From sequence record PV654397.1: a stretch of DNA of 64,000 nucleotides; one strand, 5' to 3'. Position numbers and translations under genes: made by a program. Source of the DNA: Escherichia phage WPEC5. The notes under the pieces are model-generated. The model ran no database searches, was not told the DNA's origin, and was given only the letters and a program-made list of their open reading frames with translations. Shown here piece by piece: positions 3,755-4,339 of this stretch; position 1 is the first letter of the stretch, and each line of letters starts with the position of its first letter.

Positions 3755-4339
3755 TTATCGTGTTACCTTACTTGCTGCCACATCACGCTTTTTATAGTAC
3801 TGATTCCAGATATTGCTGGTTAAACCGTAATCAAGTACTTTAATAAGTCCATTACGATCCTGGCCGATATTCTGTTTTCTGATATCTCTTATCGTTAGTG
3901 TTGATAATGTATCATCAACGTGTTGTAGTGCATCAGCAAAGCGGTGCTGGCGTTCGATTGCATTACGTTTAATATTGTACTTTAATTCATTGCACGCGTT
4001 TACGTGCTTCACACTGCCTTTGCTTGCAGTACTCAACCGATCCATAACGATAAACATATTATCAGGATCGCATAAATGCATATGCACCTTTGCAAAGTAC
4101 TGTTTCAACTGAGGGCGGTCATAGTCTAAAAAATTCCATACCTTACATTCAGTTTCATTTTGTTCTACACCCGCATCACAATTCGCGACCTTAATCACTA
4201 ACCGATCATTTAAAGCGAATACTATACGGGAAGAACCAGCACCGATGATCTCCAGGCCAGCTAACCGACAAGCTGAAAGGATCTCTTTGTTGGTTTCCAT
4301 TTCTGACAGTGTACGGATGAATTTAGTATAATTACGCAT
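3755..4339 (-). CDS. putative protein kinase-like protein (194 aa)
   Basis: Motifs read by eye: Gly loop GAGSSRIVF, VIKV, catalytic-loop-like IRDIRKQNIG, DYG (DFG-like); start trimmed to ATG 4339 with AAGGAG SD. Confidence 0.5.
   Translation of the reverse strand: MRNYTKFIRTLSEMETNKEILSACRLAGLEIIGAGSSRIVFALNDRLVIKVANCDAGVEQNETECKVWNFLDYDRPQLKQYFAKVHMHLCDPDNMFIVMDRLSTASKGSVKHVNACNELKYNIKRNAIERQHRFADALQHVDDTLSTLTIRDIRKQNIGQDRNGLIKVLDYGLTSNIWNQYYKKRDVAASKVTR

Follow-up and report, generated by a model that had tools for sequence, protein, structure and literature searches.

Are two short minus-strand open reading frames (ORFs) of Escherichia phage WPEC5 kinases cut down to their catalytic minimum, or do they only resemble kinases in a few motifs? 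We analyzed a 64,000-nucleotide stretch of the genome (PV654397.1; hereafter the window), in which a first-pass annotation had picked out the two frames by eye and had proposed an atypical kinase-like fold as the most that could be claimed. ORF A occupies positions 3755-4339 (194 aa) and ORF B positions 53023-53394 (123 aa), both on the minus strand and both counted with their stop codons. We find that the two are distant paralogues in one phage-borne family, PHROG 4301. ORF A is already partly annotated as a kinase; what is new is that it belongs to a widespread and extremely shortened variant of the kinase fold.

Both ORFs are real genes. Their coordinate ranges are exact, complete coding sequences, and the DNA around both sites is 95-99% identical to that of the Asteriusvirus jumbo coliphages (the 121Q/PBECO4/G17/Sharanji group, ∼350 kb). 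When compared with the 121Q and Sharanji orthologues, the ratio of non-synonymous to synonymous substitution rates (dN/dS) is 0.04-0.17 for the two genes and ∼0.13-0.15 for ORF B, which indicates purifying selection. An ordered regular expression of five motifs without internal stop matched the six-frame translation of the window only at ORF A and ORF B and matched none of 200 codon-shuffled windows. Thus, the motif pattern is not a product of chance. Screening 585 six-frame ORFs with hmmsearch at maximum sensitivity revealed no third member of the PHROG 4301 type in the window.

The relationship between the two proteins is not apparent from pairwise BLASTP, which gave no significant match, and their identity is ∼20%. 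Both match PHROG 4301, a family of unknown function, with E-values of 1.8e-41 for ORF A (profile positions 13-185 of 225) and 7.1e-43 for ORF B (positions 40-167 of 225). A profile built from A-type sequences only and one built from B-type sequences only aligned over 109 columns in hhalign (E 5e-5), and in the joint alignment the columns G, R, K, G, N, E, D, G, D, G are invariant in both types. The paralogy had escaped the first-pass annotation, as had the Gly-loop-like KGATRTV, the AIKIP and the NLNE motifs of ORF B. Word-indexed searches yielded ∼90 relatives; an exhaustive profile search raised the size of the family to at least 3,312 clusters at 50% identity (E<=1e-3), or 881 at E<=1e-10.

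Most family members are 112-135 aa long. Conservation was counted over 219 single-domain members. The Gly-loop Gly is found in 97% and the Arg that follows it in 99%, the β3 Lys in 99%, the αC Glu in 99.5%, the Asn three residues before this Glu in 98% and the Asp of the DFG motif in 98%. The catalytic position is Asp in 170 members and Glu in 43 (97% together), Lys is found two residues further on in 79%, and the position five residues further on is Asn in 169 and Ser in 42 (96% together). The catalytic Lys and Asp equivalents, whose absence from an alignment would have spoken against a kinase, are thus near-invariant throughout the family. As many as 163 of 209 members (78%) stop 2-5 residues beyond the DFG Asp, from which we conclude that the short form, with Hanks subdomains I-VII only, is the native architecture of the family; the first-pass annotation had called the proteins short but had not recognized this. 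We therefore rule out that ORF B is a truncation product or pseudogene, as its homologues are of the same length range, most of them end alike and its dN/dS is low.

Some members are larger. A 267 aa relative from Kosakonia phage Kc263 (locus L024, positions 1941-2744) consists of a B-type core, with the loop E-H-V-P-K-N, and ∼125 extra residues that have no Pfam match. Proteins with 2-4 A-type domains in tandem are found in metagenomes; P0094, P0099, P0104, P0135 and P0168 are 690-970 aa long with 3-4 such domains joined by conserved linkers. Among these P0094 (923 aa, four domains; locus L022, positions 204-2975) is encoded beside a gene for a GIY-YIG homing endonuclease, on a contig of 4.8 kb.

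ORF B consists of Hanks subdomains I-VII alone. In the family alignment its Gly-loop equivalent is G7-A-T-R10-T-V12 within KGATRTV (53359-53376, minus strand, as are all positions given for the two proteins). It is followed by the invariant β3 Lys K21 in AIKIP (53332-53334) and by the invariant N38 and E41 of NLNE (53272-53283), which lie in a predicted helix (residues 28-43) corresponding to αC. The catalytic loop D103-A-K105-P-E-N108 (53071-53088) is of the Ser/Thr-kinase type D-x-K-P-E-N and aligns in register with the HRDLKPxN of p38, TTK, CK1 and others. The DFG equivalent D120-Y-G122 (53029-53037) is followed by the last residue, D123, and the stop codon. The two ORF B motifs that had been called by eye, DAKPENFG (D103-G110) and KLDYGD, are thus borne out by the translation.

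ORF A comprises a two-helix N-terminal extension, the kinase core, an insert and a single helix after DYG. Its Gly-rich loop G33-A-G35-S-S-R38-I-V40 (4220-4243) has the family-invariant Arg at the third Gly of GxGxxG. K50 in VIKV (4190-4192), the equivalent of the Lys in VAIK of strand β3, is invariant, with Lys in all 217 ungapped members, and N61 and E64 (4148-4159), the latter equivalent to the αC Glu, are invariant as well and lie in a predicted helix (residues 55-74). The catalytic loop D152-I-R-K-Q-N157 (3869-3886) aligns with the HRDxKxxN of MKK4 and MKK7; D152 is invariant in the family alignment and N157 nearly so. The DFG equivalent D170-Y-G172 (3824-3832), assigned from the alignment and from the match to MKK4 and MKK7, is followed by 22 residues that contain the one C-terminal helix. 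The motifs GAGSSRIVF (G33-F41), VIKV, IRDIRKQNIG and LDYGL occur in the order in which they had been reported. The description of the loop as D-x-K-x-x-N holds for ORF B but has to be corrected for ORF A, which reads D-x-x-K-x-N; here the Lys lies at +3 instead of +2 and is not kept in every homologue, while the spacing from D to N is canonical.

Does this pattern of residues reflect a kinase fold? No Pfam or NCBIfam model scored above threshold for either protein, and below the gathering threshold of PF00069 neither qualifies as a Hanks-type kinase. The full set of subdomains I-XI, with activation segment and APE, αF and the Arg of subdomain XI, is present neither in the two proteins nor family-wide. 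ORF A showed a weak PADLOC match to the PD-T4-6 kinase, and nothing there was above threshold. Profile searches thus failed at the Pfam threshold, but the profiles of the family itself did reach protein kinases. The family (B/joint) profile gave 57 matches to sequences in the Protein Data Bank (PDB), of which 54 are protein kinases that align in register from αE through the catalytic loop to DFG, with p38 as the best (E 0.003). The A-type profile matched MKK4 (E 1.8e-4) and MKK7 (E 3e-4) over the whole stretch between the Gly-loop and DFG, in MKK7 also past it. With single, approximate CDK2 and PknB sequences, hhalign gave the family profile a probability of 5% and aligned only the stretch from the catalytic loop to DFG, in the right register.

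Structure prediction is in good agreement with the profile matches. AlphaFold2, run on alignments of 88-91 sequences, produced models with a mean predicted local distance difference test score (pLDDT) of 92.4 and a predicted template modeling score (pTM) of 0.82 for ORF B, and with 90.6 and 0.87 for ORF A. The predicted secondary structure elements follow the kinase order β1-β3, αC, β4-β5, αE, β7-β8, DYG. Foldseek against BFVD listed family members first, some of them named "protein kinase domain-containing", followed by Ser/Thr kinases of giant viruses. SAICAR synthetase, which has a related ATP-binding fold, also scores 8.3-8.9. The models contain the bilobal fold that characterizes the protein-kinase-like (PKL) superfamily, that is a five-stranded N-lobe sheet with αC, followed by αE, the catalytic loop, β7-β8 and a loop that binds the metal. 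The catalytic residues of the superfamily, assigned by sequence, are K50, E64, D152, N157 and D170 in ORF A and K21, E41, D103, N108 and D120 in ORF B. An atypical kinase-like fold is therefore supported by the near-invariant Lys and Asp equivalents and by the reach of the A-type profile to MAP2K kinases. We count the fold, as modeled, with the reality of the genes, their paralogy, the conservation and the architecture and distribution of the family among the computational results.

What would such proteins do? The interpretation that we favor, with a probability of roughly 55%, is that ORF A and ORF B are minimal kinase-like phosphotransferases derived from Hanks-type Ser/Thr kinases, for which we infer catalysis, timing and substrate class. 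Both retain the ATP-binding N-lobe (the β1-β5 sheet, Gly-rich loop, β3 Lys and αC Glu). Of the C-lobe they retain the beginning, with αE, the D-x-x-x-x-N catalytic loop, β7-β8 and the D-Y-G that binds Mg, whereas the activation segment and helices αF-αI (subdomains VIII-XI) are missing from both. The genes would be transcribed early by the host σ70 RNA polymerase, ORF A from within the terminal repeat. Mg-ATP would be held between the Gly-loop with the Lys-Glu pair and the Asn with the DYG Asp, and the γ-phosphate would be passed to hydroxyls of host (or phage) targets with the loop Asp acting as base. These targets are most probably Ser/Thr residues of proteins, because ORF B has the D-x-K-P-E-N signature. 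As there is no substrate-docking lobe, the proteins may be promiscuous or may need a host partner for specificity or activation, in the way that OspG needs ubiquitin-charged E2 (E2∼ubiquitin). Modification of host proteins would be the likely outcome.

Several observations weigh against this interpretation. PF00069 (Pkinase) scores 17.0 bits on ORF A (E 0.004) where the cutoff is 31.7, it does not match ORF B, and only 6 of 88 family members have sub-threshold Pkinase matches. The His-Arg of HRD before the catalytic Asp is absent, and the invariant Arg takes the place of the third loop Gly. About 20% of the members carry Glu/Ser in place of the loop Asp/Asn, and the loop Asn is lost in some repeats of the tandem proteins. 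Finally, our search of solved structures turned up no kinase from which all that follows DFG is missing.

NleH and OspG have been described as kinases lacking subdomains VIII-XI (PMC12756638), which sets a functional precedent for activity in this state, and in this respect ORF A and ORF B resemble these type III effectors (NleH1/NleH2 of enterohemorrhagic and enteropathogenic Escherichia coli, OspG of Shigella). However, the solved chains of OspG and NleH are 160-169 residues long and extend past DFG, whereas ORF B has 123 residues and a single one beyond DYG. The effectors work in eukaryotic cells, OspG together with E2∼ubiquitin, whereas the phage proteins act in bacteria. Neither OspG nor NleH was among the PDB profile matches at E<=10, and homology to them thus found no support. 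Hanks-type Ser/Thr kinases such as MKK4/7, TTK and PknB have the HRD His-Arg, the activation segment, APE and αF-αI, all of which are missing from the phage proteins; the latter have Arg for the third loop Gly and stay below the PF00069 threshold. The archaeal tRNA 2'-kinase ArkI and the Rio/Bud32 kinases, with chains of 173-269 aa, differ in that they keep C-lobe helices after the DFG equivalent, and no sequence-profile link leads from the family to either of them.

T7K (gp0.7 of phage T7) is a promiscuous kinase that disarms defense systems and in which a DPV motif replaces DFG; a homologue has been reported in phage G17 (PMC13645617). ORF A and ORF B are similar to T7K (PHROG 2828) in being phage-encoded, probably early and predicted to have a kinase fold. 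We nevertheless reject membership in the T7K family, since neither protein matched PHROG 2828 at E<=1 and since the hidden Markov model of the mini-kinase family did not recognize the T7K homologue of Sharanji, gp144 (-1.0 bits); furthermore, the motif is DYG and not DPV. T7K homologues also exceed the two proteins in length (that of Sharanji has 225 aa), and T7K itself has an additional DNA-binding domain. In Sharanji gp144 (WNN14432.1) is encoded ∼3 kb from the orthologue of ORF B, and tblastn found no T7K homologue anywhere in the window. At 56485-57202 of the window Sharanji gp144 and its neighbors (locus L004, positions 1636-3036) are replaced by ∼0.7 kb of unrelated sequence, including a 137 aa ORF with a signal-peptide-like N-terminus.

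A bolder version of the favored interpretation, which we consider tentative and less likely than not, is that the B-type proteins are the smallest self-sufficient protein kinases known (∼120 residues) and phosphorylate host proteins promiscuously or through a surrogate C-lobe supplied by the host, so that the phage gains control of the cell or defense systems are disarmed. They would then be autonomous single-gene modules spread over thousands of phage lineages, found in tandem arrays of 2-4 copies as well, and a second, independent kinase strategy of phages beside T7K.

Alternatively, the proteins could be active phosphotransferases with a non-protein substrate, by analogy with aminoglycoside and choline kinases (APH/ChoK) or ArkI, such as a small molecule, a nucleic-acid end or a ribose hydroxyl. 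The platform on which kinases bind protein substrates (activation segment, P+1 loop, αF-αG) is absent, the invariant Arg of the Gly-loop could bind an anionic substrate, and B-type genes are located 1-3 genes upstream of DenV in two unrelated lineages, that of the window and that of the NP1-like Pseudomonas siphoviruses, and directly upstream of the RNA ligase gene rnlB in JS10. Such adjacency is restricted to 2-3 of 19 lineages, though, and early and middle phage regions are rich in genes of this kind. The B-type D-x-K-P-E-N is a signature of Ser/Thr protein kinases, the His of the Brenner motif H-x-D-x-x-x-x-N is missing, the PDB profile matches are protein kinases and not APH/ChoK, and no Pfam APH or choline-kinase model matched, so that the two proteins do not qualify as members of APH/ChoK. 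We regard a non-protein substrate as unlikely.

We consider it rather improbable that the family consists of non-catalytic, pseudokinase-like nucleotide-binding modules that sequester or allosterically modulate a host protein and for which ATP would serve as a structural cofactor. The extreme shortening removes αF, which in canonical kinases anchors the catalytic and regulatory spines. Together with the missing HRD His-Arg and the loss of the loop Asn from some tandem repeats this would fit a loss of activity, for which the kinase-independent binding of RPS3 by NleH provides a precedent (PMC12756638). On the other hand, catalytic as well as ATP-binding positions are 96-99.5% conserved, which is untypical of pseudokinases, and OspG, NleH and HopBF1 illustrate that minimal kinase folds can be active.

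ORF B might also be one half of a split kinase that obtains its C-lobe from another phage protein, for example from the translationally coupled 89 aa ORF at 52752-53021, given that the stop codon of the mini-kinase gene is often directly adjoined or overlapped by the next gene downstream. This we judge very improbable. The flanking proteins of different lineages are unrelated in an all-versus-all BLASTP, on which ground completion by an adjacent gene is rejected; moreover, the ORF at 52752-53021 belongs to the unrelated PHROG 8563, and in Salmonella prophages the mini-kinase gene stands alone between Rz and nu1. We find it hardly credible that the motifs arose by chance or through an annotation artifact in proteins without a kinase fold, or that ORF B is a truncated pseudogene, since the computed evidence contradicts this in spite of the missing Pfam/NCBIfam matches, the insignificant BLASTP between the two proteins and the 5% hhalign probability.

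The distribution of the two types differs. A-type genes are found only in RaK2-like jumbo phages (59 records, from phages of Escherichia, Klebsiella, Salmonella, Yersinia, Erwinia, Pectobacterium and Xanthomonas). B-type genes are found in 119 phage records covering Asteriusvirus, T4-like phages, Vequintavirinae, Aeromonas and Erwinia jumbo phages and Pseudomonas siphoviruses, and in Salmonella lambdoid prophages. All contexts examined are phage or prophage, and among 47 loci from 19 lineages no neighboring gene family recurred in three or more lineages.

In several GenBank records the orthologue of ORF A bears a kinase name, which is "serine/threonine-protein kinase PRP4", "PknA" or "protein kinase domain-containing protein". 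Every Asteriusvirus record listed has the orthologue of ORF B as "hypothetical protein", and a few distant B-type genes are labeled as kinases. The label "putative virion structural protein" in Shewanella phage SXP01 was discarded, as it belongs to the neighboring coding sequence and not to the mini-kinase ORF. Our literature searches found no study of the PHROG 4301 family, and its sole mention is a sentence in the Sharanji paper on WNN14351.1, the orthologue of ORF A: "another protein kinase, which function is unknown" (PMC11895373).

With at least 3,312 clusters at 50% identity, the PHROG 4301 mini-kinases are far more widespread than the T7K-like phage kinases, and they range over jumbo phages, T4-like phages, Pseudomonas siphoviruses and Salmonella lambdoid prophages. 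Since Pfam and NCBIfam do not recognize the members, most genome annotations miss the family. The phage kinase JSS1_004, like T7K, has reportedly been shown recently to be a broad anti-defense weapon. If the 120-residue form is active it would set a lower size limit for the kinase fold, with everything after DFG dispensable for catalysis, and would offer a tiny scaffold for engineering; if it is inactive, the family would be a large set of nucleotide-binding modules for interaction with the host. The question can be tested directly because the two genes are defined and belong to a cultivable coliphage.

The surroundings of the two genes suggest early expression, because σ70-like promoters upstream of them point to transcription by the host polymerase. 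The orthologue of ORF A in vB_Ec-M-J is located inside an annotated direct terminal repeat of 21.5 kb. A σ70-like promoter, TTGCCA-17-TAATAT, recognized by its match to the consensus, is located upstream of ORF A at 4368-4396 (minus strand), and an AGGAG ribosome-binding site is found between it and the ATG at 4339. The small neighbors of ORF A have near-perfect consensus promoters. Just downstream of the ORF A stop codon a sequence scan detected a 12-bp terminator-like hairpin (3716-3743, minus strand), the stem of which holds the -35 box TTGACT of the promoter of the next gene (3736-3708). For ORF B, a perfect σ70 consensus promoter, TTGACA-16-TATAAT, at 54474-54501 (minus strand) heads a string of co-oriented genes from 54426 to 53023, of which ORF B is the fourth and last, and this promoter would drive it.

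Between the small minus-strand genes, intergenic cassettes of 71-76 nt recur that are 75-89% identical (3251-3326, 6099-6174 and 6370-6445; 2702-2772 and 3555-3625; 4610-4680 and 4886-4956). Each consists of a GGGGA...TCCCC hairpin, a near-consensus σ70 promoter and a ribosome-binding site, which gives the impression of an early-gene array with modular terminator-promoter units.

A few genes downstream of ORF B the window encodes the pyrimidine-dimer DNA glycosylase DenV (52160-52597, minus strand; Pfam Pyr_excise, E 5.5e-15). In the NP1-like Pseudomonas siphoviruses the DenV gene overlaps the end of the mini-kinase gene (Pseudomonas phage NP1, locus L017, positions 3321-3812). Between denV and the ORF B operon lies a 45 aa ORF (52602-52739, minus strand) that contains the HNH-like CSNHHRMVH and has no Pfam match. 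The relatives WPEC3, fEgEco12 and vB_Ec-M-J have ∼0.3 kb more at this site, with an HNH endonuclease in their annotation, and the ORF looks like a decayed homing endonuclease.

Further along the minus strand two overlapping ORFs of 243 and 230 aa (50477-51208 and 51168-51860) are made up of repeats of ∼55-70 aa (KKTTEQFIKDAKEKRTDIDFDYSKVNYIN..TKVTIIDPEFGEF.ITP..FL.G.GHP) and may be one gene broken by a frameshift. By eye they resemble a 335 aa gene of another phage locus with Pfam CapR, DUF723 and DUF4379 matches. The D.SKAN...DPDFG of these repeats imitates the kinase pattern D....N...DFG and is a trap for motif calls made by eye; three matches to that pattern at 51192-51632 were rejected as kinases, since they are copies of a motif that recurs in CapR-like repeat proteins. 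At 55150-56185 (minus strand) the products of three ORFs in a row (112-122 aa) are hydrophobic and multi-pass-looking, and with their similar C-terminal tails (RDKMPNR, RDNLPER, RNKIPEK) they look by eye like tandem paralogues. A 124 aa ORF at 56962-57336 (minus strand) has a long low-complexity tail rich in Lys, Asp and Pro (KADKDSKDKKDKADKSDKKENKKKAKDDKDKKSPKPNP...).
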